Below are positions 33,930-58,730 of a stretch of 64,000 nucleotides of DNA, piece after piece. The position numbers and the translations under genes were made by a program. The notes below the pieces were generated by a model. The model was not told where the DNA came from. It did not search any database and saw nothing but the letters and a program-made list of their open reading frames with translations. Numbering within the stretch: the first letter of the stretch is position 1; every line of letters begins with the position of its first letter. The stretch comes from Alphaproteobacteria bacterium (GTDB lineage Bacteria; Pseudomonadota; Alphaproteobacteria; GCA-2731375): contig CBDDBZ010000037.1 in the NCBI GenBank assembly GCA_965225945.1, forward strand, positions 394,860 to 458,859, read 5' to 3'.

Positions 33930-34024
33930 CCGTATCGTTTAGGTTTTTTGTCCCGCCGTCGTTCCCGACCCCTTGAATTGATGCCACACCTACCCTAAGC
34001 TACCCCCACGGATTGATGCCGCAC
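33886..34024 (+). repeat. GATGCC repeats including ATTGATGCCRCAC x2; putative arm/att sites
   Basis: gatgcc at 33886 and 33917; attgatgccacac at 33977; attgatgccgcac at 34012. Confidence 0.45.
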
Positions 34025-34089
34025 GTTTGCGGCTTGATTACACGCTCCGGTCCCTCAGCTCGGGTCCGGGCTTCGCGTCGGGGATCGCC

Positions 34090-35274: not shown

Positions 35275-35288
35275 GGGAGGCGCGGGCG

Positions 35289-39673: not shown

Positions 39674-39887
39674 ACGCCGAGACCGTGGTTGCCCCGGCGG
39701 GCCCACAGGGACCTCCCACGCTGCTTCGCTCCGCGTAACGCTAAAGCGCTACACGAAGCAGCGCGGGTCCCTCCTATGGATTGCCGGGACAACCGGCAAC
39801 ACCGTATCCGGCATCAACAAGTGGCCCCTTTTTACTCCGGCGCCATGGCCCGAATTTACTCCGGCGTTGACACCTATGCCTGCATTA

Positions 39888-41054
39888 ATACCACCGAGCG
39901 GAATGCCTGACTCACGTTGGGGATTCCCAAGCGGTCCGATCTCTGACTCAATGTGGTGAACCAATGAGGTTCGCCATGGCAGCGCCTATCGACTTACGGA
40001 ACGATTTTGACAGCGTCTCACTGCGGCGCCTCGCGAAGAGGACCAGGGACGCGACCCAGAGCCGTCGTCTGCTGGCGTTGGCCGAGGTCTACGATGGTGG
40101 CAGCAGGACGGATGCGTCGCGGATCGGCGGCGTCGGTCTGCAGATCATTCGCGACTGGGTGCTGCGCTTCAACGCCCGCGGACCGGACGGGCTGGTCGAT
40201 GGGAAGTCACCGGGCGCACCCTCGAAGCTCAACGCCGATCACCGCCGCGCACTGGCGGAGGTTGTTGAGGCCGGCCCGGTCCCGGCGGTCGACGGCGTCG
40301 TGCGCTGGCGGCGCAAGGACCTGGCGCGGTGGCTCTTGGAGACGTTCGCCATCTCGCTCGACGAGACCACGGTCGGGCGCGAGTTGAAGGCGCTCGGCTT
40401 CGCCAAGATCTCGGCGCGGCCGCGCCACTACGCGCAAAACGAGCTGGCCGTCGAGGCTTTTAAAAAAAAACTTCCCCGCCGAACTGGCGAAGATCCGGGC
40501 GAGGCTCCCGAAAGGCGTCGAGATAGAGCTGTGGTGGCAAGATGAAGCCCGCATCGGCCAGAAGAATAAGCTCACACGCCGATGGGCCAGACGTGGCACG
40601 CGCCCGCGGGCGCCCCGCGACCAGCGCACCGAATGGGCCTATATCTTCGGCGCGATCTGTCCCGCGAAGGGGAAAGGCGCCGGGCTGGTCATGCCCTGGT
40701 GCGACACCGACGCCATGGCGGCGCACCTCATCGAGATCAGTGCCGCCGTCGATCCCGGCGCCCATGCGGTGCTGATCGTCGATCAGGCCGGTTGGCACTT
40801 GACGCCCAAGCTGGCGATCCCCGACAACATCACCGTCCTGGCGCTGCCGCCACGATCGCCCGAGTTGAACCCGGTGGAGAATGTCTGGCAATTCATGCGC
40901 GACAACTGGTTGTCGAACCGGATCTTCAAATCCTACGAAGACATCGTCGCGCTGTGCTGCCAAGCCTGGAACAACCTCATCGACCAACCATGGAAGATCA
41001 TGTCCCTCGGCATGCGCAAATGGGCGCATGGGTTCTGATCAATGACCGTTGGTA
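39888..41054 (+). mobile_element. IS630 family element; transposase 39976-41038 split at an A9 run
   Basis: TA at 39886-39887 and 41055-41056; HTH OrfA, then WWQDEARIGQK...VDQAGWH...SPELNPVENVW in another frame after ttttaaaaaaaaac. Confidence 0.88.
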
Positions 41055-41292
41055 TAACTCCAAGCGTTGTGATTTTGTCATCGTTGACGCAACCGGTTAC
41101 CCCGTCTTGGCCATCGAATACCAGGGAACCGGGCATTTCACCCCGGATGCTTTTGAAAGGGATTACGTCAAACAACAAGCGCTTGAGAGCGCCGGCGTTC
41201 GCCTTGTTGAAGTGTTCGACAACTTTCGCTGGGATGACGTGCAGACGCAGCTCGAGACGGCGGTGGGGACGCAAAAGAAAATGTTTGCTTAG
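41055..41292 (+). pseudogene. DUF2726 (PD-(D/E)XK-like) C-terminal fragment
   Basis: YACI|IS630|NSKRCDFVIVD...VLAIEYQGTGH....ERDYVKQQALESAGVRLVEV; the rest was lost at the IS21 end. Confidence 0.7.
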
Positions 41293-41296
41293 CTTA

Positions 41297-42265
41297 GAGT
41301 CCGTCCGGAGACTTTATGTAGGATTACAGAGTTTTCGGAGCATGAGTCGAATGGACGCGAGCTTGATGAAGGCGAGCGCGTTGCGGTTGAGGTTCTCCCA
41401 GTCCTTGGCCAGTCGGCGGCAGCGGTTGAGCCAGGCGATGGTGCGTTCGACCACCCAACGCCTGGGCTGGACGACGAAGCCCTTCACCCGATCGGATCGC
41501 TTGACGATCTCGGTCTCGAGATCGGGCAGGATGCCGGCCAGGGCGCGGTGAAAGACCGGCCCCTGATAGGCGCTGTCGGCGAACAATTTCCCGAGAAAGG
41601 GAAACAGACCGAACAAGGTCGCCAGCAGCGCGAGACCGCCGTCGCGATCCTGAACGTCGGCGGCGGTGACGATGCCGTGCAGCAGCAAGCCTTGCGTATC
41701 GACCAGAACATGCCGCTTCTTGCCCTTGATCAGCTTGCCGGCATCGAAGCCGTGGCTGTCGATGCGAGCCCCCCTTTTTCAGCGCTTTTCACACTCTGAC
41801 TGTCGATGATGCAGGCCGTGGGGCTGGCTTCGCGCGCGGCTTTCTCGCGGCACTTGAGGTAGAGCGCATGATGGATGCGATCCAGCGTGCCGTCCCAGTT
41901 CCACAGGCCGAGGTAATCATGCACGGTGCTTCTGGGCGGCAAATCCTTGGGCAGCGCGCGCCACTGGCAGCCGGTGCTCAGAATGTACATCACGCCGTTG
42001 ATCACCTCGCGGATAGCGACGCGCCGTTTGCCGCCGCCGGGCTTGCCCGGCGGGATCAGCGGCTCGATATGCGCCCATTCCGCATCGGTCAGGTCGCTCG
42101 GATAACGCAGTTTGTCGCGGTTGTAGCGCGGGCGGTTGTCGGCAGTCCACATGGGGCACCTCAAGAGCAAATTCACCACCCCAGAGAATCACAGCTGATT
42201 CAGCTCTTCAAGAGGGGCCGCCGGATAACCGATTCATCCGACTCATAAAGTCCCCGGACGGACAC
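41297..42265 (-). mobile_element. IS5 family element (IS1031-like), copy 1
   Basis: IRs GAGTCCGTCCGGAGACTTTATG / CATAAAGTCCCCGGACGGACAC; TTA TSD; transposase split at AAAAAGGGGGG (YPSDLTDAEW, IIDSQSVK, RWVVERTIAWL). Confidence 0.95.
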
Positions 42266-42330: not shown

Positions 42331-43512
42331 TTAGGCTGTTTCCCTCAGACCAGCAGACTCAATACGTAAAAGGGCATCAGAAACAAGCTCTACAGTACAT
42401 GCAATCTCCTTATCGGTTGTGTACCAACCCACGCTGAGTCTGATCGAAGATTGCGCATCTTCATCGGACAGGCCAATTGCGCGTAGGACATGAGACGCCT
42501 CCGGAATGCCGGAAGTGCAGGCGGACCCAGTCGAAACAGCCAAATCAGGTTGGAGCACTCCCAATAATTCTTCGGCGCGGAATCCCGGAAATTGCATACT
42601 CAAATTGCCAGGATGCCTTGCTGATATGGACGGGCCGTTCAGCTTGGCTTCCGGACCCAAGGCGGATAGGCCATCCCAAAGCTTCAAGGATTTCGTGCGA
42701 AGAGATTCACGCTGTTGCGGCTGTTGCAGCAATAGTTCGCAGGCGGCTCCCATTCCCACGCATAGCGGAACGGGCAGAGTTCCCGATCGAAGCCCTTGTT
42801 GTTGACCACCTCCATGTATGAGGGGCGTAATTTCACTTTGCAGCCGCCGCGTCACATAGAGACACCCGATCCCTTTAGGGCCGTAGATCTTATGTCCCGA
42901 CAGACTGATCATGTCTGCATAGCTGGAAGCGCGGGACATGTCGCAAGCCAACGGCATCTGAGCGGCGTCCAAATGCACAAGCACACCAAAGCGCGAAGCC
43001 AAGGCATAGATAGCCTCGATATCCTGAATCGTACCGATCTCGCTATTCACTGCACCGATAGACAACAGAAGCACCCGTTCAGAAAGTATTTCTTCAAGAT
43101 GACCGAGGTCGATCCGGCCATCCTCGCCTACCTTGCATGCCGTTAATTCGGCCCCATACTCATCCGTCATCGCAGCGCAGGTCGCAAGCGCACTTTTATG
43201 CTCAATATTGGTCGTTATAATTCCATTTCGTTCATTTTTACTCAATAAACGACGAAGACCAAGTATAGCGAGATTATTCGCCTCAGTTGCACCCGAGGTA
43301 TATATGATCTCATCATCGTCGCAGACTATGAGCGCCGCTATTCTTGCGGATGCTGAATTCACGGCGGCGGCTGCCGCCCATCCAGATGCGTGATCCGATG
43401 AGTGGGGATTGGCGAACGATTCGGTAAGAAACGGCAGCATTTCCTCGAAAACGGCCTCATCGAGCGGTGTCGATGCCTGATGATCGAGGTAGATTGTGTT
43501 TCCAGTTCGCAT
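42331..43512 (-). CDS. Cysteine desulfurase (IscS/DndA/SspA-like), divergent from the ssp-like operon
   Basis: IYLDHQASTP, TSGATEANN, DAAQ, SGHKIYGPKG (PLP Lys), RSGT, STGSACTSG (catalytic Cys). Confidence 0.93.
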   Translation of the reverse strand: MRTGNTIYLDHQASTPLDEAVFEEMLPFLTESFANPHSSDHASGWAAAAAVNSASARIAALIVCDDDEIIYTSGATEANNLAILGLRRLLSKNERNGIITTNIEHKSALATCAAMTDEYGAELTACKVGEDGRIDLGHLEEILSERVLLLSIGAVNSEIGTIQDIEAIYALASRFGVLVHLDAAQMPLACDMSRASSYADMISLSGHKIYGPKGIGCLYVTRRLQSEITPLIHGGGQQQGLRSGTLPVPLCVGMGAACELLLQQPQQRESLRTKSLKLWDGLSALGPEAKLNGPSISARHPGNLSMQFPGFRAEELLGVLQPDLAVSTGSACTSGIPEASHVLRAIGLSDEDAQSSIRLSVGWYTTDKEIACTVELVSDALLRIESAGLRETA

Positions 43513-43662
43513 TTAGTTTCAATATCTTATCGGTGAAAACGGTTGCTGAGCGCCACTTTCAAGGCATCGGTGCATCTTCTGGGGGATCGCCCCAGCTTTC
43601 CGTTTGACTATAGCATGTTCGAGGAGGTAAAGTCGAGCTGGAGGAACCATCCAGGAGAAACC

Positions 43663-44619
43663 ATGTCAAGAGGGCCGCTATTTCAAAAAAACTACAAACC
43701 GCTATTCTCTGGCCATGAGACATTTCCGTTGCGTTATGGCTGGCTGAAGAAAGTATATGATGCGGTGACCGAAAGCGGTGATGGGATCGCGAGCAAGTCT
43801 ATCTTCTCAGATGACAACGCCATTGCCCGTTTTGGCGTTGGCAAGAATATGGTTGCCTCCATGCGATATTGGGGCGCAGCATGTGGCATTATTGGCAACG
43901 TTTCCCCTAACCGACTCTCTGTGAAGCCTCTTGGCCACAAACTATTCGGACAAGATGGTCTTGACCCTTACATGGAATCACCTGCAACGCTTTGGATTTT
44001 GCATTGGTGGCTTTGCGGGCGAGAAGACAGAACGACCTGGTATTGGGCTTTCAACCATTTTTCGCACCTAACATTCGAGCGGGAAACACTTGTAAAAGCT
44101 TTGTTATCGCTTGCAGAAGATCGTGAATGGCCACGCGTATCCCCGGCCACCGTAAAGAGGGATGTTGAGTGCTTTGTCCGCACCTATGCCGCCAGAATGG
44201 CGACCGGGCAAAGCTCTCATGAAGATGCACTTGAATCGCCCCTGACTGAACTCGGTCTGCTAAGGGCAACTGGAAAAAAGGATGGATTCCGTTTTGTTCG
44301 TGGCGCCAAATCCACACTAGGCGAAGGGGTCTTCGCTTACGCGCTCATTGATTTCTGGGAAAGTTACTCACATTCGAAGACGCTTTCATTCGAGGCGATC
44401 GCTCATGAGCCAGGTTCCCCCGGACGGGTTTTTTCGCTTGATGAAAGCGACCTTGCCGAGCGCCTAGCTGACATCGGCGACGCCACTGACGGGCTTTTGC
44501 GATGGTCTGAAACGGCTGGCCTAAAACAAGTCATTCGATCCTCAGAGCTTAACGTCGAAGCCGCCCTTGATTTGGTCGATGCAGACTTTCGCGTTCGCGA
44601 CCGCAGGAAGGTGGCCTGA
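43663..44619 (+). CDS. sspB: DUF4007 protein (SspB-like)
   Basis: FSGHETFPLRYGWLKK, FGVGKNMVASMRYW, DPYME...TLWILHW, SPLTELGL, SPGRVF, ETAGLKQ; RBS AGGAG before ATG at 43663. Confidence 0.85.
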   Translation: MSRGPLFQKNYKPLFSGHETFPLRYGWLKKVYDAVTESGDGIASKSIFSDDNAIARFGVGKNMVASMRYWGAACGIIGNVSPNRLSVKPLGHKLFGQDGLDPYMESPATLWILHWWLCGREDRTTWYWAFNHFSHLTFERETLVKALLSLAEDREWPRVSPATVKRDVECFVRTYAARMATGQSSHEDALESPLTELGLLRATGKKDGFRFVRGAKSTLGEGVFAYALIDFWESYSHSKTLSFEAIAHEPGSPGRVFSLDESDLAERLADIGDATDGLLRWSETAGLKQVIRSSELNVEAALDLVDADFRVRDRRKVA

Positions 44620-47600
44620 TGAGTCTGAGTGAAAAGGTATACATAGCCCCAAGGTTTCAGCGCGCAATACGAATAGATACCGACCTGAAACAACCGGAAT
44701 CGCTGGAAGGCTTCATGTGCCCCCAATCATCCGCCGAAGTCTTGCTCGCGATGGCAAACCACGTGTCGGACACGAAGCAAGGCGCCTTTACATGGACAGG
44801 ACCCTACGGCAGCGGCAAATCCAGCTTAGTTGTTGCACTAAGCGCGCTGCTCGGAAACAACAAGACTCTGCGCACGCTTGCCGTTTCATCGATTGGTGAG
44901 CCCGTCGCAAGCGATATCCGGTCCAAGCTTCAATGCGGAAAGAAGGGTTGGCAGACAATCGCGGCTGTCGGGCGGCGCGAGAATGCTTGCCACGTCATTG
45001 GAGAAGCCCTGATTGATTCCGGCATAGTGCCGGGCCGCCGGAAGAAACAATGGGACGACAAAGCTATCATCGAGGCATTGGTGAACACCGCAGGAGCAAA
45101 GGATCACGGGGGCGTCATCCTCTTTATCGACGAGATGGGAAAGCTGCTTGAAGGTGCCGCGCAGGGCGAAGGCGATGTGTATCTTTTCCAACAGCTTGCC
45201 GAGGCGGCATCACGTAGTGACGGCCGCTTGATTATCGTCGGCGTCCTGCATCAGGCGTTCGAAGAATATGCCAACCGGCTTTCCAGAGATTTGCGCGACG
45301 AATGGTCGAAGGTTCAAGGCCGTTTTGTTGACTTGGTTGTTAATGCCGCCGGTGAAGAACAGATAGAACTAATCTCGCGCGCCCTATCCGGCGAAGCGCC
45401 GGGTAAAGGCCATGTGAAACTAGCCGGAAAGGTTGCCAAGGAAATCCAATCGCGCAAGGCCGGTATTTCAAGCTATCTCGATCAGGCCCTTGCTGATTGC
45501 TGGCCGCTCCACCCCGTTGTCGCGTCGCTTCTTGGGCCGATTTCGAGGCGAAGATTCGGGCAGAACCAACGCAGCATATTCGGCTTCCTGAATTCAGCAG
45601 AGCCGCACGGTTTTCAAGATTTCCTGCGAACAGCCGAAGAGCGCGACCTCTACTCCCCGAACCTGCTTTGGGAGTATCTACAACTCAATCTCGAACCCTC
45701 GATTCTCGCTTCTCCCGACGGTCACCGATGGTCGATAGCCGTAGAGGCAATCGAGCGGTGCGAAGCAATGGGGGGGGATCAATCTCAAATCGAGCTTCTC
45801 AAAGTCATTTCACTGGTTGATCTATTCAAGGACCGGTCGGGCATGGTCGCGAGCGATGCGCTGTTGGCTGCTTCGTTCCCCTCGCTTTCCAAGGCCAAGT
45901 TGCGGTCGATGCTCGACCAGCTTACCGAATGGTCGCTGATATCGTTCAGGAAGTTTCTTGGTGGCTACGCGGTTTACGCAGGAAGCGACTTCGACATAGA
46001 GGCTGCAACCGAACGAGCCCTCGGCCACATTGACGGAGTGGATTTCGAGCAGCTGCGTGCCCTTGCAAGTCTTCAACCCGTCATGGCAAAGCGCCACTAC
46101 CACGAAACAGGGGCGCTACGCTGGTTCGATGTCGAGATAGCGCCGCTTTCAGGCGCCTTGCAACATGCCGAGGAATTCGAACCGGGCGCGAGCACGATCG
46201 GCCTGTTTCTGCTCGAAATCCCGACACAAGGCGAATCCGAAGATGCAGCCAAGGACCTTTGCAAGCGAGCGGCACGATTATCCGGTCGTCACGATATAAT
46301 CGTCGGGCTGTCTTCACGGTCCTGGTCAATCAATAACCTGTCCCGCGATTTGATTGCCCTGGAGCACGTGAGAAATGGCGACTCAGAACTGCGAGGGGAC
46401 GCTGTAGCGAGGCGTGAGGTCAACGCCCGTATTGCCAGTTTGCAAGCGCAGCTAGAACAAGAGCTGCAACGCGCCTTCGACGGCGCACAATGGTTTCAAA
46501 AGCAGCATAGTCCCAAGCAGCTTATGCATGACGAGTTGAATGGCCTTGCCTCAGATCTCGCCGACAAGCGGTATCCTTTGTCGCCGGTTCTGAATAACGA
46601 GCTGCTGAACCGGATAAAGCCGTCAAGTAATGCGATTGCCGGACAAAACGCACTGCTCAGAAAGATGGTGGACAATGAAGGCGAAGAGCGGCTCGGAATA
46701 GTCGGGTTCCCGGCCGAAGGCGGTATGTTCGAATCTGTTCTCGAAAGTTCAAACCTCTATGCGAACACCCCTGATGGATGGCGCTTCGTCGCTCCGGGTG
46801 AAGGATTGCCAGACAAGGCAGGTCTGCGCCCGCTTTGGGATGCAACGGCGGAATATCTGCTCAAGCGGGAAGACCGATCAGTGACGCTTTCGGACGTTTA
46901 TGATCTTTGGCGGTCGAAGCCATTCGGCATCAAGGACGGCATGATGCCTGTCCTGGCGGTAGCGTTCATTCTGTCGAAGCGAAACGACGTTGCGCTTTAC
47001 CGGCAAGGCGTGTTTCAGGCCCGCTTTACCGACCTTGATGTCGATTATCTGGCAAAAGACCCGAATGATATCCAGCTGCGGTGGATGAATTTGAGCGACC
47101 TCGCGCGAAGGCTTTTGTCCGGTCTTGCCAATATCGTTCGCGATCTGGATGAAACGAACAGCCTGCAAAATCTAGAGCCGATCGATGTGGGGCGCGGACT
47201 GATTTCGATTTACACGAGCCTTCCCCAATGGACGCAAAGAACGATGAGATTATCCGCGAATGCCATCCGTATTCGCGACCTGTTCAAACGCGCCAGGGAC
47301 CCGAACCAGTTCATCTTCAATGATCTTCCCCAGCTTGCCAGCAACAGCAGTGATTTGGAAAGCGAGGACGGTTTCCGCCGGATCGTGGGTAGCGTCCGGG
47401 ACGCATTGGAAGAGATGGTCAAAGCTTATCCGCAAATGCTGCAACGCCTTGCAGAGCGCACGCTTGCAGAGCTTCAGGTTCCCAACAGCTCATCACAGGC
47501 CCTTAATGACCTAAGAGACCGCGCTAGTAATATTCGGGAGTTGGGGGGTGATTTCCGTCTCAATGCCTTTGTCAATCGCATATCGTCCTATCACGACGCA

Positions 47601-48005
47601 ATTACAGAAATAGAAGGATTGGCGGGGCTTGCCGCCAATAAGCCGGCTAGGGACTGGATCGACGCCGATCTGGATACGGCCTCGATTGAACTCGCCGATC
47701 TCGCGCAACGGTTCAACAAGTCCGAAGCGTTTGCGCGCGTGAAGGGCCGTCCCGATAAGCGTCACGCAATGGCAGTGATTGTTGGCGTCGGAGGCATACC
47801 GGCCCCTATAGGCGATGAGTTTGATGTTAGCGATGCGGAACTCGCAAATGTCGAAGCGCTAATCACCGATTTGCGAAAAGCGCTCCACAAGCAGCGAAAC
47901 GCCAAGCGGTCGGTAGTACTAGCCGCACTGGCAGAAATTTCTGCCGAGGTCATGCGGAACGAAGATGCGGAGCAGGCCGACCGCAGCAAGGCGGTAGTAC
48001 GATGA
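44619..48005 (+). CDS. sspC: Large ATPase (SspC-like)
   Basis: Walker A TGPYGSGKSS, Walker B FIDEMGKLLE, EWSKVQGRF, PLHP...FGQNQRSIFGFL; coupled to the genes on both sides. Confidence 0.8.
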   Translation: MSLSEKVYIAPRFQRAIRIDTDLKQPESLEGFMCPQSSAEVLLAMANHVSDTKQGAFTWTGPYGSGKSSLVVALSALLGNNKTLRTLAVSSIGEPVASDIRSKLQCGKKGWQTIAAVGRRENACHVIGEALIDSGIVPGRRKKQWDDKAIIEALVNTAGAKDHGGVILFIDEMGKLLEGAAQGEGDVYLFQQLAEAASRSDGRLIIVGVLHQAFEEYANRLSRDLRDEWSKVQGRFVDLVVNAAGEEQIELISRALSGEAPGKGHVKLAGKVAKEIQSRKAGISSYLDQALADCWPLHPVVASLLGPISRRRFGQNQRSIFGFLNSAEPHGFQDFLRTAEERDLYSPNLLWEYLQLNLEPSILASPDGHRWSIAVEAIERCEAMGGDQSQIELLKVISLVDLFKDRSGMVASDALLAASFPSLSKAKLRSMLDQLTEWSLISFRKFLGGYAVYAGSDFDIEAATERALGHIDGVDFEQLRALASLQPVMAKRHYHETGALRWFDVEIAPLSGALQHAEEFEPGASTIGLFLLEIPTQGESEDAAKDLCKRAARLSGRHDIIVGLSSRSWSINNLSRDLIALEHVRNGDSELRGDAVARREVNARIASLQAQLEQELQRAFDGAQWFQKQHSPKQLMHDELNGLASDLADKRYPLSPVLNNELLNRIKPSSNAIAGQNALLRKMVDNEGEERLGIVGFPAEGGMFESVLESSNLYANTPDGWRFVAPGEGLPDKAGLRPLWDATAEYLLKREDRSVTLSDVYDLWRSKPFGIKDGMMPVLAVAFILSKRNDVALYRQGVFQARFTDLDVDYLAKDPNDIQLRWMNLSDLARRLLSGLANIVRDLDETNSLQNLEPIDVGRGLISIYTSLPQWTQRTMRLSANAIRIRDLFKRARDPNQFIFNDLPQLASNSSDLESEDGFRRIVGSVRDALEEMVKAYPQMLQRLAERTLAELQVPNSSSQALNDLRDRASNIRELGGDFRLNAFVNRISSYHDAITEIEGLAGLAANKPARDWIDADLDTASIELADLAQRFNKSEAFARVKGRPDKRHAMAVIVGVGGIPAPIGDEFDVSDAELANVEALITDLRKALHKQRNAKRSVVLAALAEISAEVMRNEDAEQADRSKAVVR

Positions 48006-48838
48006 CGACGCCTGAAAAACATGTGCTTGGTCTTTCCGGCGGACGGGATAGCGCTGCGCTCGCCGTATATATGCGTCACTACCATCCCGCACTCGATATA
48101 AATTACTTTTTCACGGACACAGGAAAGGAATTGCCCGAAGTCTACGAGTTCCTTGGCCGCCTCGAAGGTGTGCTTGGCAAGCCTATTCAAAGGCTAAATC
48201 CCGATCGTGACTTCGATTTCTGGCTGAAACAATACAATTCCTTTTTGCCGTCGGCACAAACACGTTGGTGCACCAGGCAGCTGAAACTTCGTCCTTTCGA
48301 GATCTGGATCAAGCCGATGCTTGCCGAAGGGACAAAGGTCTTTTCCTACGTTGCCATACGCAGTGACGAGGAATACCGCGAAGGCTATACGTCCAAGCAT
48401 GAGAACCTCGTCGTGAGCCTGCCCTTTAAGGAAGCCGGAATCGACAAAGCCGGGGTTCTCGAACTGCTGGAATCTTCGGGCCTTGGTCTTCCGAAATACT
48501 ATAAATGGCGCACGCGAAGCGGGTGCACGTTTTGTTTTTTCCAACAAAAGATCGAGTGGGTCAGGCTGCGCGAGGAACACCCTGAATCCTTTGAAGAGGC
48601 GAAACGGTACGAAAAAACTGCAATGGACGGCGGGTCACCGTTCACCTGGAGCCAAGGAGAGTCGCTTGAGCAACTAGAGCAGCCGGAGCGAACCGAGCAA
48701 ATCAAAGCGGATCACGCGGAACGGCTTCGAAGGACGAAATCAAAGGCCTGCACGAATCCACTCAGACCCGACGATGAACCGCTGGACATTGACGATCTGT
48801 ATGGTCAGACAAAGGCATGTCTCGCCTGCCACAAATGA
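48002..48838 (+). CDS. sspD: PAPS reductase-family protein (SspD/DndC-like)
   Basis: LSGGRDS PP-loop, DTGKE, RWCT..LK, RSGCTFC, C-terminal CLACH. Confidence 0.85.
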   Translation: MTTPEKHVLGLSGGRDSAALAVYMRHYHPALDINYFFTDTGKELPEVYEFLGRLEGVLGKPIQRLNPDRDFDFWLKQYNSFLPSAQTRWCTRQLKLRPFEIWIKPMLAEGTKVFSYVAIRSDEEYREGYTSKHENLVVSLPFKEAGIDKAGVLELLESSGLGLPKYYKWRTRSGCTFCFFQQKIEWVRLREEHPESFEEAKRYEKTAMDGGSPFTWSQGESLEQLEQPERTEQIKADHAERLRRTKSKACTNPLRPDDEPLDIDDLYGQTKACLACHK

Positions 48839-48878
48839 TGATCCGGCTTGCTTTGAAATTGTCCCATAGGAGATATTC

Positions 48879-49400
48879 TTGAATTTTGGGGAAGTAGAAG
48901 ATTTTGCTCAAGGTGCTGCGGATGCAATAGCCAGATTCACCGTTCAATTCACGCTGTCAACAGACCAGTTGGATGACGATAATTACCGGCTCGACGGTCT
49001 GGAATGGCATTCAATCTGTTACGGCGAGGACGAAATCGAAATCGTGCCGAACGACCGGCGCGGTATATATGCATTCGCAATATGTAAAGAAAGCGAAGTG
49101 CTGCCACCGCACTGCTACGTCCTTTACATCGGCATCGCCGGGAGAAAGTCGAACCGGTCACTTCGCGAACGCTACAGAGACTACCTCAATGAAAAAAAGG
49201 TTCTGAAACGTGATCGCATAGCCTTCATGATTGGAACCTGGCATCACGTGTTACGTTTTTACTACGCGCCGGTTGACCAGAATATTACGTCAGATCAACT
49301 TGAAGGACTTGAAAGGCAGCTGAACAGCACTCTTCTTCCGCCGTTCTCACAGGGGGATCTGGAAGCCGAAATCAAGAAACAACGGAGGGCGTTCAGATGA
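48879..49400 (+). CDS. GIY-YIG nuclease-family protein
   Basis: RGIYAF...LYIGIAG...SLRERY...LEGLERQL....PPF; AGGAGA RBS and TTG start; 4-bp overlap with the DGQHR gene. Confidence 0.75.
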   Translation: MNFGEVEDFAQGAADAIARFTVQFTLSTDQLDDDNYRLDGLEWHSICYGEDEIEIVPNDRRGIYAFAICKESEVLPPHCYVLYIGIAGRKSNRSLRERYRDYLNEKKVLKRDRIAFMIGTWHHVLRFYYAPVDQNITSDQLEGLERQLNSTLLPPFSQGDLEAEIKKQRRAFR

Positions 49401-50656
49401 CAAAATCCAAGACCAAAGAAATCGTCCTCCCGGCTCTTCGAGGCGTCATGGGCACGTGGGTGTACTACACATGTCTCATGAATATGGAAGAGGTCGCGAG
49501 GCGCGTCAGTTACGCCGACGAGATACACAAGAACAAGAAGCTCTCAGATATGATTCAGCGCAGCCTAAAAGCGACGAGAAGCGCGCAGATCGCAGAATAT
49601 ATCGAGACACAGGACGAACGTTTCTTCAATTCGCTCGTGATTGCGACATATGGCGGGCAGCCCAACTGGAGCGCCATCGACAGCCTGAAAAGCAATAGCA
49701 AAAACAATATCACCGAAAGACTCTCAGAAGAGACTTTAAACTCCGTCGGCTTTTTATCGCTCAGTGGAAACGAAAAGCTCTTTGCGCTGGACGGTCAGCA
49801 TCGGCTGTCAGGTATCAAGAAGGCAATAAAGGACGGGCTGGAACAAGATCCCCCCGACGATTTGTCTGTCATTTTTGTTGCCCACAAAACTTCGCTCAAA
49901 GGCTTGGAGCGCACGCGGCGGTTATTCACCACACTCAACAAGACGGCAAAACCCGTCTCCAAGGGCGACATAATTGCGCTTGATGAGGACGATGTAATGG
50001 CGATTTGCGTCAGGCGCCTGATTGAGGAGACCAAGCTTTTTGAGGGAGAGCGAGTGGCGTTCGTTGCGAACAACAATCTTCCGACATCAAACACAAAAAG
50101 CCTCACCACGATCGGCAACCTTTATGACGTGGTTACGACCTTGTTCACCCGCGTTGAGACGGATCTTAAAACAGGCAAAGCCGAACTGCAAAGAGCCCGG
50201 CCCGACGACAAGACCCTCGGGGCATACTTCGATTTGGCTAAGCGGTATTTTGAGCTAATGGCGGCGAATTTCGGTGCCCTTTCCGAATTTTTCGCGGCAG
50301 AGGAAACTACCGGAGTTGTTAAAAAGTATCGTGGAAATCACGGGGGCAGCGCGCTGTTCCGGCCCATAGGGCTGGCCATATTCGCGGATATTGTGGCCCA
50401 CTTAAGCAAAAAATATTCTTTGAAGAAATCAATCGAAATTGCTGGAAAATTGCCAACGACACTTACTGATCTGCCTTTTGAGGGGCTTATGTGGGATTCG
50501 GCAAGTCAGCGCATCGACAACACAAACAGGGTTACGTTGCGCGAAGTCCTTTTATACATGCTGGACAATTCAAAATGGACGGACGCGACTGTATTAAAGC
50601 GTTATCAGCGGAGTATAGGAGACGAAGAAGCGGAACTGCCGGACAAAGTCGTTTGA
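49397..50656 (+). CDS. DGQHR-domain (DndB-like, ParB-fold) protein
   Basis: IQRSL...R...IAEYI...FFNSLV, LFALDGQHRL, RLFTTLNKTAKPVS. Confidence 0.88.
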   Translation: MTKSKTKEIVLPALRGVMGTWVYYTCLMNMEEVARRVSYADEIHKNKKLSDMIQRSLKATRSAQIAEYIETQDERFFNSLVIATYGGQPNWSAIDSLKSNSKNNITERLSEETLNSVGFLSLSGNEKLFALDGQHRLSGIKKAIKDGLEQDPPDDLSVIFVAHKTSLKGLERTRRLFTTLNKTAKPVSKGDIIALDEDDVMAICVRRLIEETKLFEGERVAFVANNNLPTSNTKSLTTIGNLYDVVTTLFTRVETDLKTGKAELQRARPDDKTLGAYFDLAKRYFELMAANFGALSEFFAAEETTGVVKKYRGNHGGSALFRPIGLAIFADIVAHLSKKYSLKKSIEIAGKLPTTLTDLPFEGLMWDSASQRIDNTNRVTLREVLLYMLDNSKWTDATVLKRYQRSIGDEEAELPDKVV

Positions 50657-50679
50657 TCGTTGACGCGAGAAAGCGCGCC

Positions 50680-53600
50680 CTAAATCATGTGTTCCAAGTC
50701 GTATTCCCTGAGTGTCGGAGCAAGCACTTCATAAGCTTCAGCTCTATTTTCCGAAAGAGATGAAAACTCGGCCACTCGGCCTAATTCGGACTTGATCAAT
50801 CTCTTCGCGTAGTCAGAATCGGTTTCGTACCCCTGCGGCAAAACGACGACAAAGTCGTGTGTCGTCGCCATTTCTTTTCCGGGCGAGCGCCGTAGAATTC
50901 TTCCCCGGCGCTGAACGAATTGGCGCGGATCACGAGAGCTCGCGAGAATATACGCCGTGCTGCACGCGGGTACGTCAATACCTTCGTCAAGGCAACGGAT
51001 CGCGACCATGGCATCAATGATGCTCAGCCTGAAATTCTCCAGAATTGTGTCCCGTTCCTTGCGTGTCTCCCGAGAGGTAAATCGAGAGACATCCCAGCTG
51101 CCCCGGTGGAGAAGTGAACTCACCGCCTCGACCTGTCGCTGTCCATGATCGGCATTTTCGGGCGCGGAATCCGGCCCGGCGTCCTCATCGGTCTCAACAG
51201 TGCCGTCGCCGCAATAGAACAATGTGTGCGGACACCGAGCGGCCCCTTCTAGAACCTCTTCGAGCGCACTCATCTTGTTGGCGGCAGAACCGATTAGCCG
51301 CGCGCGCCGCATCAGGAGTCCTGTTAGTTGGGGACTTGTGCCGGATGACGAAACACCCTTCCGCCTCGCCATGATCCTGCCGATCTGCTCTGACAAGGCG
51401 ACAAACTCATCGGCTTCCGCCGCAGTCAACTCAACCAACTTCGGATAGTAAAAATAGGGAGTGAGGACCTTATCCTCTATCGCTTGTTTCAGCGTATATT
51501 TCGATACGATATCGCCGTAGAAACCGGCCAAGCGCTCATTGCGCTCCTCGTCCAGATAATGTTCGGGCGTTGCCGAAAGGCCGATCCTATAGCGCGCGTG
51601 TTCGGGCAAGAAACCCTCATAGGCTTTCGATGTGTGGTGGTGACATTCATCTCCAATCCATAACAGCCGATTGCCTTTTATCTGCTTGAGGCATTTCTGG
51701 AATTCGGGGCTTTTTAGCGTCCTGTTCACGACGACGATCGCCGCGAATTTCCGGCTTCCCATCACCAGCTCATGGACAACACTCCTGAGTTTTTCCAGCC
51801 AGTTTGCCCGTGAAACGTAGCACCGGACCGGATAGATGTTGAATGAGGAAAGGATATCGACCCATTGATCGGCGAGGTTCTGATACGGCACAGCAATGAC
51901 GCAGGTCAGGCCGTCAATGCGTTCTGACAATTTTACGACGGCATGAATGGCAGTAATGGTTTTGCCGGCGCCGGTGGCTAGATCGAACGTTCCCTGAAAA
52001 TCGCCCTTAGAGTCCGTCCGGAGACTTTATGTAGGATTACAGAGTTTTCGGAGCATGAGTCGAATGGACGCGAGCTTGATGAAGGCGAGCGCGTTGCGGT
52101 TGAGGTTCTCCCAGTCCTTGGCCAGTCGGCGGCAGCGGTTGAGCCAGGCGATGGTGCGTTCGACCACCCAACGCCTGGGCTGGACGACGAAGCCCTTCAC
52201 CCGATCGGATCGCTTGACGATCTCGGTCTCGAGATCGGGCAGGATGCCGGCCAGGGCGCGGTGAAAGACCGGCCCCTGATAGGCGCTGTCGGCGAACAAT
52301 TTCCCGAGAAAGGGAAACAGACCGAACAAGGTCGCCAGCAGCGCGAGACCGCCGTCGCGATCCTGAACGTCGGCGGCGGTGACGATGCCGTGCAGCAGCA
52401 AGCCTTGCGTATCGACCAGAACATGCCGCTTCTTGCCCTTGATCAGCTTGCCGGCATCGAAGCCGTGGCTGTCGATGCGAGCCCCCCTTTTTCAGCGCTT
52501 TTCACACTCTGACTGTCGATGATGCAGGCCGTGGGGCTGGCTTCGCGCGCGGCTTTCTCGCGGCACTTGAGGTAGAGCGCATGATGGATGCGATCCAGCG
52601 TGCCGTCCCAGTTCCACAGGCCGAGGTAATCATGCACGGTGCTTCTGGGCGGCAAATCCTTGGGCAGCGCGCGCCACTGGCAGCCGGTGCTCAGAATGTA
52701 CATCACGCCGTTGATCACCTCGCGGATAGCGACGCGCCGTTTGCCGCCGCCGGGCTTGCCCGGCGGGATCAGCGGCTCGATATGCGCCCATTCCGCATCG
52801 GTCAGGTCGCTCGGATAACGCAGTTTGTCGCGGTTGTAGCGCGGGCGGTTGTCGGCAGTCCACATGGGGCACCTCAAGAGCAAATTCACCACCCCAGAGA
52901 ATCACAGCTGATTCAGCTCTTCAAGAGGGGCCGCCGGATAACCGATTCATCCGACTCATAAAGTCCCCGGACGGACACTTAGCCTTCCACGCATCAAGTG
53001 CAGCGATTTGATGTTCCTGCATCTTGAATGGTCGGCTATTGATGGTCTTTGGCTCTTTCGGCTTCGAGGATGTCGTGCTTGTCGTGCCGTAGATCTTGTC
53101 TCGCAACCTTGCAGCGATGGCCGCTTCAATCTCGGGATCAGGGGTGTAGTTCAGTGCCCTTGCGGTCGAAATCAGCTTTTCGCTGACGGCCGTCGGAATG
53201 TCCATGACTGCCGTGGCACGGCTTTCATTGCGCCAAAGCCGTTCAAAGCTATCGATATGCGGGTCGAAATATTCAGCTAGCTCAGGTCGCCAACTCGGAA
53301 AAACATTGATTGATTCATAGTTGAACGTCGGCAGCAGAGCGTGGGTGCTCTCGTTTGCCGATCCGGCAAAGACGAGCTTGTCTCCTGCCTTGTCGCTGAT
53401 GATGCCGATCTTGTCGTGATACATTCCGCGCACGCGAAGCGCGATCTTGACTTCGAGTCTGCCGTGCGCAACCAGCCACGCCAGAGTCTCAAAGCGGTTT
53501 TGAAACAGCGCGTCGCTGACATTTGTGATCTGATCGAGCAGTTCGGCCCCGATTTTTTCTGAAATCTCTCTCTGCTGATGGCCTTGCTTGATCGCTTCGA

Positions 53601-53823
53601 TGTCTTGCTCGTCGGAAAAAGCGCCCAAGATCAGGCGGATTTGACCGCCGTTTTTTACAAAAACCGAAAGCGCCTGCGCCGCGTAGCTGATCGTTGATGC
53701 CGAGAAATATCCTACGGCTCGATCATAGCGGTTAGCTACGGACAGCGCCGGTAAATAAAAGTCCTCCAAAATATTATCAAGATCGGACTTGTAGACACCT
53801 TGATATTGCAAATCACGCAACAT
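50680..53823 (-). pseudogene. PLD-like nuclease + SF2 helicase (PT-associated restriction enzyme, PbeA-like) interrupted by IS5 copy 2
   Basis: N-part YDRAVGYF, YHDKIG...GSANES; junction WKAK|GDFQGTFDLATGAGKT; DECHH, GLSATP, CLDEGIDVP, QRRGRILR. Removing the IS and one TSD gives 2172 nt (723 aa) in frame. Confidence 0.88.
52010..52978 (-). mobile_element. IS5 family element, copy 2
   Basis: Same sequence as copy 1; TTA TSD at 52007-52009 and 52979-52981. Confidence 0.95.
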
Positions 53824-54297
53824 CTAGAAAGTGATCCCTTCGATGTCCGGCTCACTGTCTTCGATGTTCAGATATCCGCTCTTCTTCAGAAGCTCCAGGA
53901 TGTCACGGTCCGGATACTCTCCTCCACTGCAAAGCATCGAGTCGCGAAGAATCTGAAAGCCGCCATTGGCGTACTCTTCGAAGATTTCGGCACACTTGCT
54001 CTCTTCCCCGTCCTTCAGAATGTCCGGATTTTTCGTTTCCGCCAGCGCGAGAAGATATATCAGGTCCTCGGCGTCCCCTCTTTCAAACTGCTGGTAAGAC
54101 ACGTCCTCGATACCGTCGCTGCGGTCCAACGGAATGCGCCGCCCCTCGGAGTAGCCCAGCATCGCCGCGAAACACAGGAGCTCACGGATCGTAGGAAAAA
54201 GCGTTCGGTCGGATCCCGGCAATTTGGTCACGGCCAGCCGCTGAACCATGTCCTCGTGTACGCGGCTTCGATTGATGTTCGGGGCTCTATCGCTCAT
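53824..54297 (-). CDS. DNA phosphorothioation-associated protein 4 family (dnd_assoc_4 / PbeD-like)
   Basis: FPTIRELLCFAAMLGY...LIYLLALAE....ILK...IFEEYANGG; coupled between the ATPase and the helicase. Confidence 0.8.
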   Translation of the reverse strand: MSDRAPNINRSRVHEDMVQRLAVTKLPGSDRTLFPTIRELLCFAAMLGYSEGRRIPLDRSDGIEDVSYQQFERGDAEDLIYLLALAETKNPDILKDGEESKCAEIFEEYANGGFQILRDSMLCSGGEYPDRDILELLKKSGYLNIEDSEPDIEGITF

Positions 54298-57296
54298 TCT
54301 GCGGTCACCTTCACAATTTCGGTCCCGTCGTAGGAAGAGTCGAAGATTGATGTCCTGAACTCCTCACCTTTGAAATACCTGCTTTCAGGCTTCCTATCGC
54401 CAATTGAATCTTTGTTGTGACGCACAAGCAGGAATTCTGCACCGATATGGCTTTGCAGTGCCGAGAGAACCTCATCGGACCCTTGAGAGCGTGATAACAG
54501 CAATACGACCTGGCGCGACATTCTAGGGATGAACTCCGCCGTTGTGCGGCGATAGGAATCGTCCAATTGGCCGAACGGAGAGTCCAGCACCAATGGCGCT
54601 ATCGTGCCCGGCAAGAGTTTATAATCCTCCGCGCTTTCCCTAAGAGTCCGTCCGGAGACTTTATGTAGGATTACAGAGTTTTCGGAGCATGAGTCGAATG
54701 GACGCGAGCTTGATGAAGGCGAGCGCGTTGCGGTTGAGGTTCTCCCAGTCCTTGGCCAGTCGGCGGCAGCGGTTGAGCCAGGCGATGGTGCGTTCGACCA
54801 CCCAACGCCTGGGCTGGACGACGAAGCCCTTCACCCGATCGGATCGCTTGACGATCTCGGTCTCGAGATCGGGCAGGATGCCGGCCAGGGCGCGGTGAAA
54901 GACCGGGCCCTGATAGGCGCTGTCGGCGAACAATTTCCCGAGAAAGGGAAACAGACCGAACAAGGTCGCCAGCAGCGCGAGACCGCCGTCGCGATCCTGA
55001 ACGTCGGCGGCGGTGACGATGCCGTGCAGCAGCAAGCCTTGCGTATCGACCAGAACATGCCGCTTCTTGCCCTTGATCAGCTTGCCGGCATCGAAGCCGT
55101 GGCTGTCGATGCGAGCCCCCCTTTTTCAGCGCTTTTCACACTCTGACTGTCGATGATGCAGGCCGTGGGGCTGGCTTCGCGCGCGGCTTTCTCGCGGCAC
55201 TTGAGGTAGAGCGCATGATGGATGCGATCCAGCGTGCCGTCCCAGTTCCACAGGCCGAGGTAATCATGCACGGTGCTTCTGGGCGGCAAATCCTTGGGCA
55301 GCGCGCGCCACTGGCAGCCGGTGCTCAGAATGTACATCACGCCGTTGATCACCTCGCGGATAGCGACGCGCCGTTTGCCGCCGCCGGGCTTGCCCGGCGG
55401 GATCAGCGGCTCGATATGCGCCCATTCCGCATCGGTCAGGTCGCTCGGATAACGCAGTTTGTCGCGGTTGTAGCGCGGGCGGTTGTCGGCAGTCCACATG
55501 GGGCACCTCAAGAGCAAATTCACCACCCCAGAGAATCACAGCTGATTCAGCTCTTCAAGAGGGGCCGCCGGATAACCGATTCATCCGACTCATAAAGTCC
55601 CCGGACGGACACTAACCTTTGCAAATTCGACAAGCGCGGCTGTGAACGCAAGCCCGAGCAACTGGTTCTCGCCGCTTGATTTCGGTAGCGCCATTCCATC
55701 GGAATTGACCAGACTGATCCCATAGTCGTCCGACATCCGCAGGGTGAGCACCTTCCGCGTTGTCGCTTCCAAGATCTTGCGTATTCCAGCCCGCAGCACT
55801 TTGCGCGCCTGCGTCTCTTCCTCCACCAGTTGCAGCTCAAGAATGCCCTTGATCGTTTCGCACAAATTCCGGCGTTTTGCGTAGATTGCGGTTTGCTGGT
55901 CCTGCTGTGCAAGAGTGTTGATATCGCGGTCAATCTGCGTCTTTTCGCGTTCGGCATTCCCAATGCCGGTCTCGATTGATCCGATATTCCGGTCGATCTC
56001 GGACAGCTCTTTTCGCAGTTGCTCCCGTCTTTCCTCACGAGAAGCGATATCGTCGAAGTTTATGCCCTTCAACTTGTCATGAATTTCGCCGAGCTGCGCT
56101 TCAATCGTCCCGAACTCCTCATTCGCTTCCGTCAAACGTTCTTTTGCTTTGATGAGACGATTTGGCGCCTTGGCGCGTTCCGATTTAAGGCTGCCGAGCC
56201 GCGCGCGGACCTTTGTGATCCTGTCGCGCATGATCTGATTGGCTGCCTTCTCCAGAAGTTTTGCTACCTGCTTTGATGCTTCACTGCCCGGTGGCAAAGG
56301 GGCTCCGCAGATACAGGTTTCCGCTTCGAGTACGTCTTTCACGAACTCCTCGTTATACGGGGAGGGAATTCGGCCGCGATGGGCCTTGTCGTTCAGAAAA
56401 TCGAATGTCTCTTCTGTGATCTTCTTCGAGACGATAAATCTGCCGTTCTCGCCAAGCCACTTATAGACCTCGCCGGCGGCCTCCTTTTGCCTCTTTTCGA
56501 CACGCTTTGACTGCTCGGTCAACCGCTCGCGGCTGCGTTGCAGTTCCTTTGCGGCGCTCGTATTGCGGAGCTTTGTATCAATGTCGTTGATTTGCTCGTC
56601 TGTAAGCTGCCTGCTCTTTTCAAGTCTTGCAATTTCCTGCGTTGCCGTGTCGATCTGAGAAACGAACGCATCGATGCGGCGGTTCAGCTCCTCAATCTTA
56701 TTCGTAGCGGGTGTTGAAGGAATCTGCTTGCGGAACTGATTGGAAATCGCCTGCAGGTCATCGACCGCTGTCTCGATTAGAGAACACCCCAAAATATCTC
56801 GAACCGCGCCGCGTATCGAAGCGCGGTTCTTCTCCCCAAGAAAGACCTCGGCATGTTCACCGTCAAACAGGAAATGTGACGCCATTTCACGTGGGATGAC
56901 CGTGTTGATGAATGTATCGGGCGACTGGACATCAATCTGGCCCCCGCTATCAAAACGCGCCACCACAAAGCTGCGACCCGCATCAGAAGCAGGACCGGCC
57001 CTGAAGAAACGCTTGGCAATGTAATGGTTGCCGTTGTGTTCGAACAACACCTCAACCGATGCAAGGGTCCTGCCTTCCTTCTTTGCGTCGTAATTTAGGA
57101 TGTCTTCCTTCTTTTCAAACCGGCTAGTTGTCTCTCCATAAAAGCACCAGAGCAAAGCATTTAGTAAGGTGGTTTTTCCGACACCGTTTTCCGCGTAGAT
57201 GAGTGTTACATTCTTGTCTTTATCGGACGAGAATGTAATCGAGCACTCCCCATAAAAACACCGGAAATCTTTCAATCTTATTTCGTCAAGTATCAT
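54294..57296 (-). pseudogene. SMC/DndD-like ABC ATPase (PbeC-like) interrupted by IS5 copy 3
   Basis: AENGVGKTTLL, FLFDGE, Zn-hook CICG, coiled coils, KSSGE|IS|LVLDSPFGQLD. Removing the IS and one TSD gives 2031 nt (676 aa) in frame. Confidence 0.88.
54644..55612 (-). mobile_element. IS5 family element, copy 3
   Basis: Near-identical to copies 1 and 2 (one substitution seen near 54907); TAA TSD at 54641-54643 and 55613-55615. Confidence 0.95.
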
Positions 57297-57530
57297 TGCC
57301 AGCGTCCGTCAATTTGGTGTGACGTTCAATCAGTTCACGTAGTTTTCGTTGGCGCTCAGTTTTTACATTTCTCTTCTCAAAGAAATACAATCGTTCAAGT
57401 TCAATTATTTCCTTTATAATAGGATCATGTCTTGCGTAGTCTATGTTTTCATCTTGCATGTCGAATCTGGCTCCTCACGATTGAAAATTGCAGAAGAGAA
57501 CGAAAAACGCAATCTATTTGGAAACTGCTA

Positions 57531-58668
57531 TACCCATCCTACCCCAAAACCCGAAATTCCTGATGGGTGATAATACGGAAGTTATCGGTTACTTTATCTC
57601 GGAATTCTCGCCAGTTTTTGGGGATTATTTCGCGCAGGAATTTGATAATTGCCTGGGCAAATTGTTGTTGGGTTGGATAGAAGCGGTTATGGGTGACATG
57701 GGCGTGCATCACAGCCCACAGGCGCTCAATCGGGTTCAAATGGGGGCAATAGGCCGGTAACCGGATGAGATTGATGCGGCAATCGTCGCGCGATAGCCAC
57801 TGCCGGACTGTCTGGCAGCGATGGTAGGGCGCATTGTCCCAGATGACATGTATTGTTGATTTTGTCGGATTGCTGGCTTCGATCTTTGCCAGAAGTTTAA
57901 CCGCACTATCACCATCAACCGTGACAGGTTCGACAAACGGTGCGTCGAAATTCTCCAGACAAAGGGCGCCGTGAATATTGACACGGCCCCGGCCGGAAGT
58001 GGTTTTGACAGCAGGGTTTGAGCCCTTGCACACCCAACCAAAGGCGGGCTTCGTTTGATACTCAGGATGCACAGCATCAGCGAAATAGACCGTCTCATCT
58101 GCGGGCAATTCATTCAACAGGTTCTCGTAAAAGGCGATGAAAGCGCGTTGCTCTGCCTCGTCGGCCACACGCGGCACCGCTTTGGGTTTGCGATACTCAA
58201 ACTCCAGCCGGTGCAGCAATTTCAGGCAACCGGAGTGCGAATAGACCGCGCCATATTGCCCTGCAATATGCGCCCGGACTTCCCCAGTCCCACGGCAAAA
58301 ACGGTTCTCCAGCCAGCCCGACAGAGCCAACTCCTGCTCAACCGCCAACCGCGACAGGCCACCCTGCCAACCATCCTGCGCCAGAACTTCCCAACCGTCG
58401 CGTTGATACGCCTTGAACCACCCCCGGATAGTGTCGTCGTCAAGATAGAGAAACTCCGCGATCTGTGCACAACTCTTGCCATCATCCAACAGCAAAATAG
58501 CATTCGCACGCCGCGCAATCCCGTGCTCTTCACGCTGACGACGAACGCAACGCTCCAGCTCAAGACGCTCGCTGGTGGAAAGAAAGTGCGGATCAATCAT
58601 GCAACAAGTGGAATCCATCCGCACAAAAACGTCAAACAAAAAATTCGGAAGTTCAGGGAGTCGGAGTA
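57531..58668 (-). mobile_element. IS630 family element with a single-ORF transposase (57539 to about 58600)
   Basis: TA-flanked; RRANAILLLDDG HTH, YFADAVHP, IWDNAPYH, PHLNPIERLW. Confidence 0.88.
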
Positions 58669-58730
58669 TAGCATTCAAAAATACAGCGTATGATTAGCAA
58701 ATTTTCATGTCTGTTTTGGTGACAACACGT

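Follow-up and report, generated by a model that had tools for sequence, protein, structure and literature searches.

An Ssp phosphorothioation locus in an alphaproteobacterium, paired with an IS-interrupted Pbe restriction unit and a GIY-YIG/DGQHR gene pair

Introduction

Which restriction partner serves an Ssp modification system that has neither SspE nor SspFGH beside it? SspABCD is reported to write phosphorothioate (PT) into one DNA strand and to pair with SspE or SspFGH, and 2211 of 2678 sspBCD sets in the same survey are without sspE and sspFGH (PMC8092258). A similar gap is reported for the Pbe restriction genes: DndCDEA-PbeABCD gives PT-dependent antiviral defence for which all four pbe genes are required, and 320 of 553 pbeAC sets are 'solitary', without dnd (PMC6459918). 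The question is posed directly by a locus in a 64,000 nt stretch of contig CBDDBZ010000037.1 from an Alphaproteobacteria bacterium (the whole stretch is called the window here, and its end coincides with the contig end). A reading of its sequence that preceded the present analysis (the original prediction) had proposed an SspABCD-like writer combined with a Pbe-type module, in the absence of SspE and SspFGH. Our analysis indicates that the locus is probably a PT defence island of three modules, an Ssp writer, a Pbe restriction unit and a GIY-YIG/DGQHR gene pair. It appears to hold known PT defence systems in a recurrent Ssp-Pbe variant, new to the literature searched, with a restriction arm that is evidently dead in the present genome.

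Results

Gene content of the two arms

The gene list of the original prediction, coordinates included, is confirmed by a map of open reading frames (ORFs) together with three libraries of hidden Markov models (HMMs), PADLOC, NCBIfam and Pfam. The first arm consists of sspA and a rightward operon.

42331-43512, minus strand: sspA, cysteine desulfurase, divergent from sspB (PADLOC SspA 3.2e-124, DndA 2.1e-120; Pfam Aminotran_5)
43543-44619, plus strand: sspB (DUF4007), given as its longest ORF (PADLOC SspB 5.5e-111; DUF4007 6.5e-93)
44619-48005, plus strand: sspC, 1128-aa ATPase (PADLOC SspC 1320 bits, profile positions 1-1044 of 1045)
48002-48838, plus strand: sspD, PAPS-reductase-like PP-loop enzyme (PADLOC SspD 6.5e-136; PAPS_reduct)
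48879-49400, plus strand: stand-alone GIY-YIG nuclease, 173 aa (no HMM name; recognised by invariant residues and fold)
49397-50656, plus strand: DGQHR (ParB/DndB-superfamily) protein, 419 aa (TIGR03187 119.7 bits, cut-off 58.85; PF14072 8.1e-30)

All six genes are full-length in the window, and by HMM membership the SspABCD writer set is complete, with sspA beside a coupled sspB-C-D operon. The true start of sspB is likely the ATG at 43663, which is preceded by AGGAG. The second arm is encoded on the opposite strand; two of its genes are each split by an insertion sequence (IS), and their halves are given separately.

57286-57459, minus strand: PbeB-like small ORF, 57 aa, conserved upstream of pbeC, its stop overlapping the pbeC start by 11 nt
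55613-57296, minus strand: pbeC 5' part, with ABC ATPase head, coiled coil and CxC motif (PADLOC PbeC 1e-245, profile positions 1-559 of 629)
54294-54643, minus strand: pbeC 3' part (PADLOC PbeC 1.2e-28, profile positions 569-629 of 629)
53824-54297, minus strand: dnd_assoc_4 protein, 157 aa, in the PbeD position (TIGR04062 83.9 bits, cut-off 74.25)
52979-53823, minus strand: pbeA 5' part, HKD/PLD nuclease domain (PADLOC PbeA 1.3e-82, profile positions 1-272 of 682; PLDc_2)
50680-52009, minus strand: pbeA 3' part, superfamily 2 (SF2) helicase, up to the target duplication (PADLOC PbeA 3.1e-148, profile positions 303-681 of 682)

A full set of four Pbe genes appears to be present, in the order B-C-D-A, with PbeB (by size and position) and PbeD as putative assignments. 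The small ORF, which has no HMM match, is likened to PbeB by its size, its position and its conservation: it stands ahead of pbeC in all three of the intact loci described below and, at 41-75% identity, in many metagenome loci. The statement of the original prediction that there is no obvious small PbeB gene is corrected accordingly, and with this ORF included the locus ends at 57459 and not at 57296. PbeC carries its CxC motif as ETCICG at residue 328, all 36 relatives compared have CxCG, and PbeC also scores on the DndD model of NCBIfam. The dnd_assoc_4 protein belongs to family PF27807, to which its Atlas look-alikes also belong; it has 460 homologues, the best 120 of which are 75-96% identical. 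In PbeA, an HKD-like motif (HDKIGIISDKAGDKLVFAGSAN) at residue 136 is present in all 38 relatives compared, and the helicase piece matches TIGR04095 (422.9 bits, 1.6e-126) as well as ResIII and Helicase_C of Pfam.

The physical arrangement is as predicted. Overlaps of 1-4 nt couple sspB/sspC, sspC/sspD, the GIY-YIG and DGQHR genes (4 nt) and pbeC/dnd_assoc_4, sspD is separated from the GIY-YIG gene by 40 nt, and the ssp and pbe arms meet tail to tail across a gap of 23 bp in which no terminator-like site was found. The GC fraction is 0.46-0.57 over most of this block, compared with 0.69-0.70 at 34-36 kb and 0.63-0.68 at 59-61.5 kb.

SspE is a ParB-like DUF262 domain fused to a DUF1524 nuclease. 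No such protein was matched by PADLOC among the 11 locus proteins, and a tblastn search of the genome with a true SspE (from metagenome locus L094) gave nothing at E 1e-5. The SspF, SspG and SspH models have no match among the locus proteins; the SspF model (PDLC02793) was also silent against the genome, as it was in every control genome. Both parts of the claim that SspE and SspFGH are missing are borne out, the part on SspFGH within the locus. DndC, DndD and DndE were not found in the locus either, the only DndD-like matches being PbeC itself, and tblastn with the window's proteins revealed no second writer elsewhere in the genome. Two isolated tblastn matches occur on other contigs, one to SspB (51% over 57 aa, C32:4265-4435) and one to the C-terminus of PbeC (58% over 43 aa, C31:21177-21305); other systems may have left them behind.

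Recurrence of the Ssp-Pbe pairing

Co-occurrence of the two arms in other genomes, which the original prediction had set beforehand as one of its tests, was found from both sides. From the Pbe side, 52 metagenome contigs centred on dnd_assoc_4 were collected. Of these, 30 contain the whole 3' end of pbeA, and in 17 of the 30 the sequence continues for at least 3.5 kb past the gene. A convergent sspD is present in 16 of these 17 contigs, or 13 of 14 once three exact duplicates are removed, and the gap between pbeA and sspD is below 100 nt in 8 of the 17. Among loci found through the DGQHR gene, three genomes keep the complete nine-gene layout intact: Devosia marina (L001) and two metagenome-assembled genomes (MAGs), one from Afifellaceae (L037) and one alphaproteobacterial (L077). 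Their Pbe proteins are 72-85% identical to those of the window. The order B-C-D-A, which had been taken for a rearrangement peculiar to this locus, is constant in the metagenome loci of the present Pbe clade. In a class sample of 401 genomes, the present one included, dnd_assoc_4 occurs in four; sspBCD adjoins Pbe in two of the three genomes with distant dnd_assoc_4 matches, in one of these two in another arrangement.

What lies between pbeA and sspD varies: the slot can be empty or be filled by SspE, by the GIY-YIG and DGQHR genes or by other genes. The pair fills it in L084, L085 and L101. Slots with SspE, DUF262 or HIT genes measure 0.9-3 kb; a HIT gene is found in L095, and a true SspE in L094 (12665-14986, PADLOC 1173 bits) and L096 (3758-6079, matched by Pfam GmrSD_N and GmrSD_C only). 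In both L094 and L096 one sspBCD is flanked by a true SspE and by a complete PbeBCDA. Other occupants are an SspE-like N-terminus (DUF262) fused to an S-adenosylmethionine-dependent methyltransferase, mad2-like, in L091 and L092 (L091 9387-10757) and, in L103 (12669-14799), a protein kinase gene (PD-T4-6/mad6-like) preceded by an NsnA-like gene with DUF262.

From the side of the DGQHR gene, 79 loci were examined out of 342 matches in species-representative genomes. PbeA and PbeC matches occur together in 9 of the 37 loci that have sspCD and at least 6 kb downstream, and six of these nine are distant, of a different Pbe type with 30-36% identity to the window's PbeA. In five of the six, taken here as a second Pbe clade (L002, L009, L029, L032, L061), the ORFs are PbeA, a small ORF of 72-82 aa and PbeC, followed in all but L061 by a 144-154 aa protein that TIGR04062 does not match. 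The genes of this clade run A-B-C-D and converge on ssp-GIY-DGQHR in L002, L009 and L032, the three loci in which NCBIfam HMMs confirm the clade; they are likewise convergent in L029, where pbeC is split into two ORFs, and co-directional with the ssp operon in L061.

The simplest alternative is coincidence within a defence island, with the Ssp, GIY-YIG/DGQHR and Pbe genes independent of each other and Pbe working, now or formerly, without reference to Ssp-made PT. CxC/Pbe systems are reported to lack dnd genes in many taxa (PMC10853773, PMC6459918), and the island around the present locus also holds integrases, IS elements and a TIR gene. Coincidence is hard to reconcile with a convergent sspD in nearly every Pbe-centred contig, often within 100 nt, or with the repetition of the pairing in two Pbe clades and in several identity classes of SspC (33-89% to the window's protein). 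PbeA and SspC also diverge together, their identities to the window's proteins dropping in parallel across related loci (Spearman 0.81, n = 19). We regard coincidence as improbable, and the preferred reading remains a linked Ssp-Pbe system.

Several observations pull the other way. The correlation of identities is drawn from related and not from independent loci. Two Pbe loci, L089 (with 6.6 kb beyond pbeA) and L138, have no ssp beside Pbe. Sampling from the Ssp side (400 genomes of the phylum, with 12 other genomes carrying SspD) gave one Pbe-like module nearby, one SspE, one distant DGQHR and, with the queries used, no partner in nine; seen from this side, Pbe is a minority partner among several. 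Adjacency in a defence island is in any case not proof of functional dependence. The dnd_assoc_4 protein, for its part, shows no significant similarity to two DndE sequences in a shallow hhalign test (E 0.14), and no solved structure matches its profile at an E of 10 or below.

The GIY-YIG and DGQHR proteins

The 173-aa protein has no Pfam match. Residues G62, Y64, Y80, Y83, G85, R93, R98 and E145 are invariant in 35 of 35 sequences, and an AlphaFold2 (AF2) model was obtained at a predicted local distance difference test score (pLDDT) of 89.9. Foldseek ranks GIY-YIG enzymes best but weakly (UvrC, E 0.027, probability 0.97). VIA-align superimposes the model on T4 EndoII [Z 9.4, root-mean-square deviation (rmsd) 2.9, 105 residues aligned], UvrC (Z 9.3, rmsd 2.0, 86 aligned), I-TevI (Z 8.0, rmsd 2.5, 85 aligned) and a plant Grx N-domain (Z 7.9), then on Eco29kI (Z 6.4), PD-T4-3 (Z 6.2) and Hpy188I (Z 4.0); the next, unrelated match has a Z of 3.3. 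By its conserved residues and its predicted fold the protein is a member of the GIY-YIG nuclease superfamily. A profile search groups the family into 677 representative clusters, almost all of about 160-185 aa and stand-alone.

The neighbouring protein keeps its motif, D132 G133 Q134 H135 R136, invariant, and its more than 3,400 homologues are about 60% identical across phyla. Two closer assignments were rejected: as a DndB equivalog it scores 58.9 bits against a cut-off of 328 (TIGR03233), and as a member of TIGR04172 42.6 bits against 450. A fold search with its model returned uninformative helical matches with Z of at most 4, and its alignment profile has no match among solved structures at E up to 1.

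The original prediction had listed these two genes as extras. They are in fact a widespread and separable pair, not an oddity of the present locus: the GIY-YIG gene lies directly upstream of the DGQHR gene in 76 of the 79 loci. Among the 43 loci in which the DGQHR protein is at least 55% identical and enough upstream sequence is available, sspD directly precedes the pair in 33, and sspC and sspD are found anywhere in the locus in 36. The pair also stands behind DndC/DndD (L057, L064) and behind writers composed of PDC-M33 and an SspD-like protein (L028, L041, L042); 4 of 11 non-Ssp loci with the pair have no recognised writer.

Two of these settings deserve description in their own right. PDC-M33A/B/C, a PADLOC candidate system, lies beside the pair in Dehalococcoidia and gammaproteobacterial MAGs (L028 5014-11266, L041 5467-10831, L042 10001-14427); in L028 and L041 its C protein also contains, as a fusion, an SspD-like PP-loop domain and may be another kind of PT writer. 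On plasmid pROLI83 of Roseobacter litoralis (L139, 3386-15901), the one record that a search of plasmids yielded, sspA-B-C-D and the GIY-YIG and DGQHR genes face a convergent three-gene cassette of a DEAD/DEAH helicase, an ATP-binding protein and a PLD-family protein, which occupies the place of Pbe; the GIY-YIG gene is annotated there as 'hypothetical protein'.

The pair would act either as an SspE-like sensor-nuclease or as a regulator. An SspE-like role is suggested by the slot shared with SspE, by the combination of a ParB/DGQHR domain with a catalytically conserved nuclease and by the strong conservation of both proteins. The competing proposal is that the pair regulates ssp transcription or PT density in the manner of DndB, with the GIY-YIG protein as an accessory or a selfish passenger. 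The DGQHR protein does match the DndB family of Pfam (PF14072) and the DndB model of PADLOC (2.5e-16), DndB is reported to be a negative regulator that represses dndBCDE (PMC4507180, PMC6459918), and the pair accompanies several kinds of PT writer. Similarity to SspE is moreover not significant outside the motif. Such a regulator would have to be reconciled with a score far under the DndB equivalog cut-off, with a gene placed at the 3' end of the operon and not divergent at its promoter, with about 60% identity across phyla and a nuclease partner that has kept its catalytic-type residues in all 35 sequences, and with occupation of the very slot that SspE holds in sister loci. We consider a regulator possible, if doubtful.

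The SspE-like interpretation has weaknesses of its own. An hhalign comparison of the DGQHR profile with one SspE aligned only a 13-residue DGQ[HQ]RL motif (E 0.095), and the AF2 model of the DGQHR protein is poor in its N-terminal half (pLDDT below 50 at residues 1-196). No longer, fused relatives of the GIY-YIG protein were found, which is weak evidence.

IS insertions and the state of the locus

Four transposable elements lie in or directly beside the locus.

41297-42265, minus strand: IS5-family copy 1, 969 bp, TTA duplication, just past the 3' end of sspA
52010-52978, minus strand: IS5-family copy 2, in pbeA after codon 280, TTA duplication
54644-55612, minus strand: IS5-family copy 3, in pbeC after codon 560, TAA duplication
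57539-58678, minus strand: IS630-family transposase gene (NF033545 4e-58), its stop 79 bp upstream of the PbeB-like ORF

The three IS5-family copies are nearly identical, 969 bp each, with inverted ends and 3-bp duplications, and their transposase matches NF033580 in two frames. The interrupted genes are called as separate ORFs (pbeC, 55590-57296 and 54294-54614; pbeA, 52921-53823 and 50680-51930). Removing the IS and one duplication restores open frames of 676 aa for pbeC and 723 aa for pbeA, which are colinear with the intact genes of D. marina at 86% identity and have no further lesion. Since neither gene has any other stop or frameshift, the insertions appear to be recent. The IS630 element may in addition have displaced the pbe promoter.

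With pbeC and pbeA both split, the Pbe arm is evidently inactive in the present genome, and at most the writer and the GIY-YIG/DGQHR module would remain functional. The original prediction had alluded to the splits in speaking of an IS-repaired locus; it had not stressed this consequence.

An IS-ridden locus might also be a decaying remnant as a whole, with the Ssp writer silent or non-functional too and the IS hits no more than neutral local hops. The island is full of mobile elements (three IS5 copies, IS630, IS21 and truncated ORFs), and three of the four full copies of the IS5-family element in the 6.27-Mb assembly lie in the locus, within 14.3 kb, as local hopping would give. The ssp, GIY-YIG and DGQHR genes are full-length, though, with full-length HMM coverage, and the absence of other lesions in pbeC and pbeA points to recent events. 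Hits in or before the restriction arm are also the pattern expected if loss of restriction is tolerated and loss of modification is not. We hold general decay to be very unlikely and prefer a spared writer beside a broken restriction arm. The loss of Pbe itself may have been selected (self-toxicity) or may reflect neutral local hopping, both of which fit the sequence.

Surroundings of the locus

Three tandem tyrosine-integrase genes (32958-36485, plus strand; Phage_integrase and Arm-DNA-bind_3), the first of them short at its C-terminal end, sit on the high-GC edge immediately to the left of the low-GC island. Between them and IS5 copy 1 lies mobile-element debris (37091-41292). It comprises an AAA_21 ATPase fragment (37091-37657), an IS21-type pair (Mu-transposase C domain, 37668-38903; IstB, 38900-39673), IS630-like helix-turn-helix and DDE fragments (39964-41038) and a DUF2726/REase-like ORF (40582-41292) truncated by IS5 copy 1. 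To the right of the IS630 element a TIR-domain protein of 317 aa (59448-60401, plus strand; N-terminal TIR_2, 4.7e-16) is a candidate for a further defence function in the island. No tRNA genes were found in the window.

Discussion

In the arrangement that we consider probable, each module would contribute one activity. By homology to SspABCD as established in other bacteria, SspA would mobilise cysteine sulfur and SspD, SspB and SspC would install PT on host DNA. The convergent Pbe unit (small protein, CxC ABC ATPase, dnd_assoc_4 protein and HKD nuclease-SF2 helicase) belongs to a clade that is almost always physically tied to sspBCD and not to dnd genes; its ABC ATPase and a small DNA-binding partner would scan DNA, and the HKD-helicase would attack unmarked DNA. 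The products of the GIY-YIG and DGQHR genes, which in this reading are co-transcribed behind sspD, would form a two-protein, PT-linked sensor-nuclease or regulator and add a second PT-linked activity. Neither the Ssp-Pbe pairing nor the GIY-YIG/DGQHR module is described in the literature searched; the supplements of PMC10853773, PMC8092258 and PMC6459918 may list such neighbourhoods.

A more far-reaching proposal joins three statements, and we advance it tentatively, as possible but short of probable: the PbeBCDA clade is a dedicated restriction partner of Ssp, the GIY-YIG/DGQHR pair is a split SspE analogue able to stand behind any PT writer, and the double IS knock-out of Pbe is a record of selection. 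In such an analogue a ParB-like PT sensor would drive a separate nuclease, be it behind Ssp, Dnd or PDC-M33/SspD-like writers, and the double knock-out, by leaving the writer untouched, would document in a natural genome that a self-toxic restriction arm is selected against. If true, an Ssp-partnered PbeBCDA clade would explain part of the 'solitary' pbeAC sets and part of the 'orphan' sspBCD sets. The neighbourhoods examined suggest that Ssp and one Pbe clade are complementary, each providing what the other lacks. In that case Pbe would be expected to be able to read single-strand PT. The widespread GIY-YIG/DGQHR pair is a candidate for a new PT-linked effector or regulator, and a writer left intact next to a restriction arm broken by IS elements offers a clean example of system decay.

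Comparison with known systems

Phylogenetic profiling against DndD gave rise in 2011 to the TIGR04062 and TIGR04095 families, which were designated PT-dependent (ProPhylo, PMC3226654). The 157-aa protein lies above the TIGR04062 cut-off and the PbeA helicase piece matches TIGR04095. Both families are tied to the Dnd (DptD) profile, whereas the neighbour here and in most contigs is Ssp; the score of PbeC on the DndD model may have driven the original profile.

Each of the four Pbe components of haloarchaeal DndCDEA-PbeABCD appears to have a counterpart here: an HKD-SF2 protein, a putative PbeB in the size class of about 60-80 aa (66 aa in the type system, PMC6459918), a CxC ABC ATPase and a protein of about 150 aa in the PbeD position. 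A later reading of the haloarchaeal system (PMC10853773) takes it to be anchored on CxC-ABC/DndE, with PbeA as the HKD-SF2 protein, PbeB as the small protein, PbeC as the CxC ABC ATPase and PbeD as a cognate of DndE. The present Pbe differs in being paired with sspBCD, in its order B-C-D-A instead of A-B-C-D and in being IS-broken; and whereas haloarchaeal PbeD is said to be a DndE cognate, the protein in its position here belongs to TIGR04062/PF27807, with no DndE similarity detected in the shallow test above.

With DndB/DGQHR proteins and SspE, the DGQHR protein shares the DGQHR motif, the TIGR03187/PF14072 domain match and residence in PT loci. In SspE, unlike here, the nuclease is fused to the ParB-like domain; the DGQHR protein is instead accompanied by a separate GIY-YIG protein. 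SspABCD with SspE or SspFGH has the same four writer genes, the same layout of sspA against sspBCD and a restriction partner beside sspBCD; in the present locus the place of that partner is taken by Pbe-type genes and the GIY-YIG/DGQHR pair.

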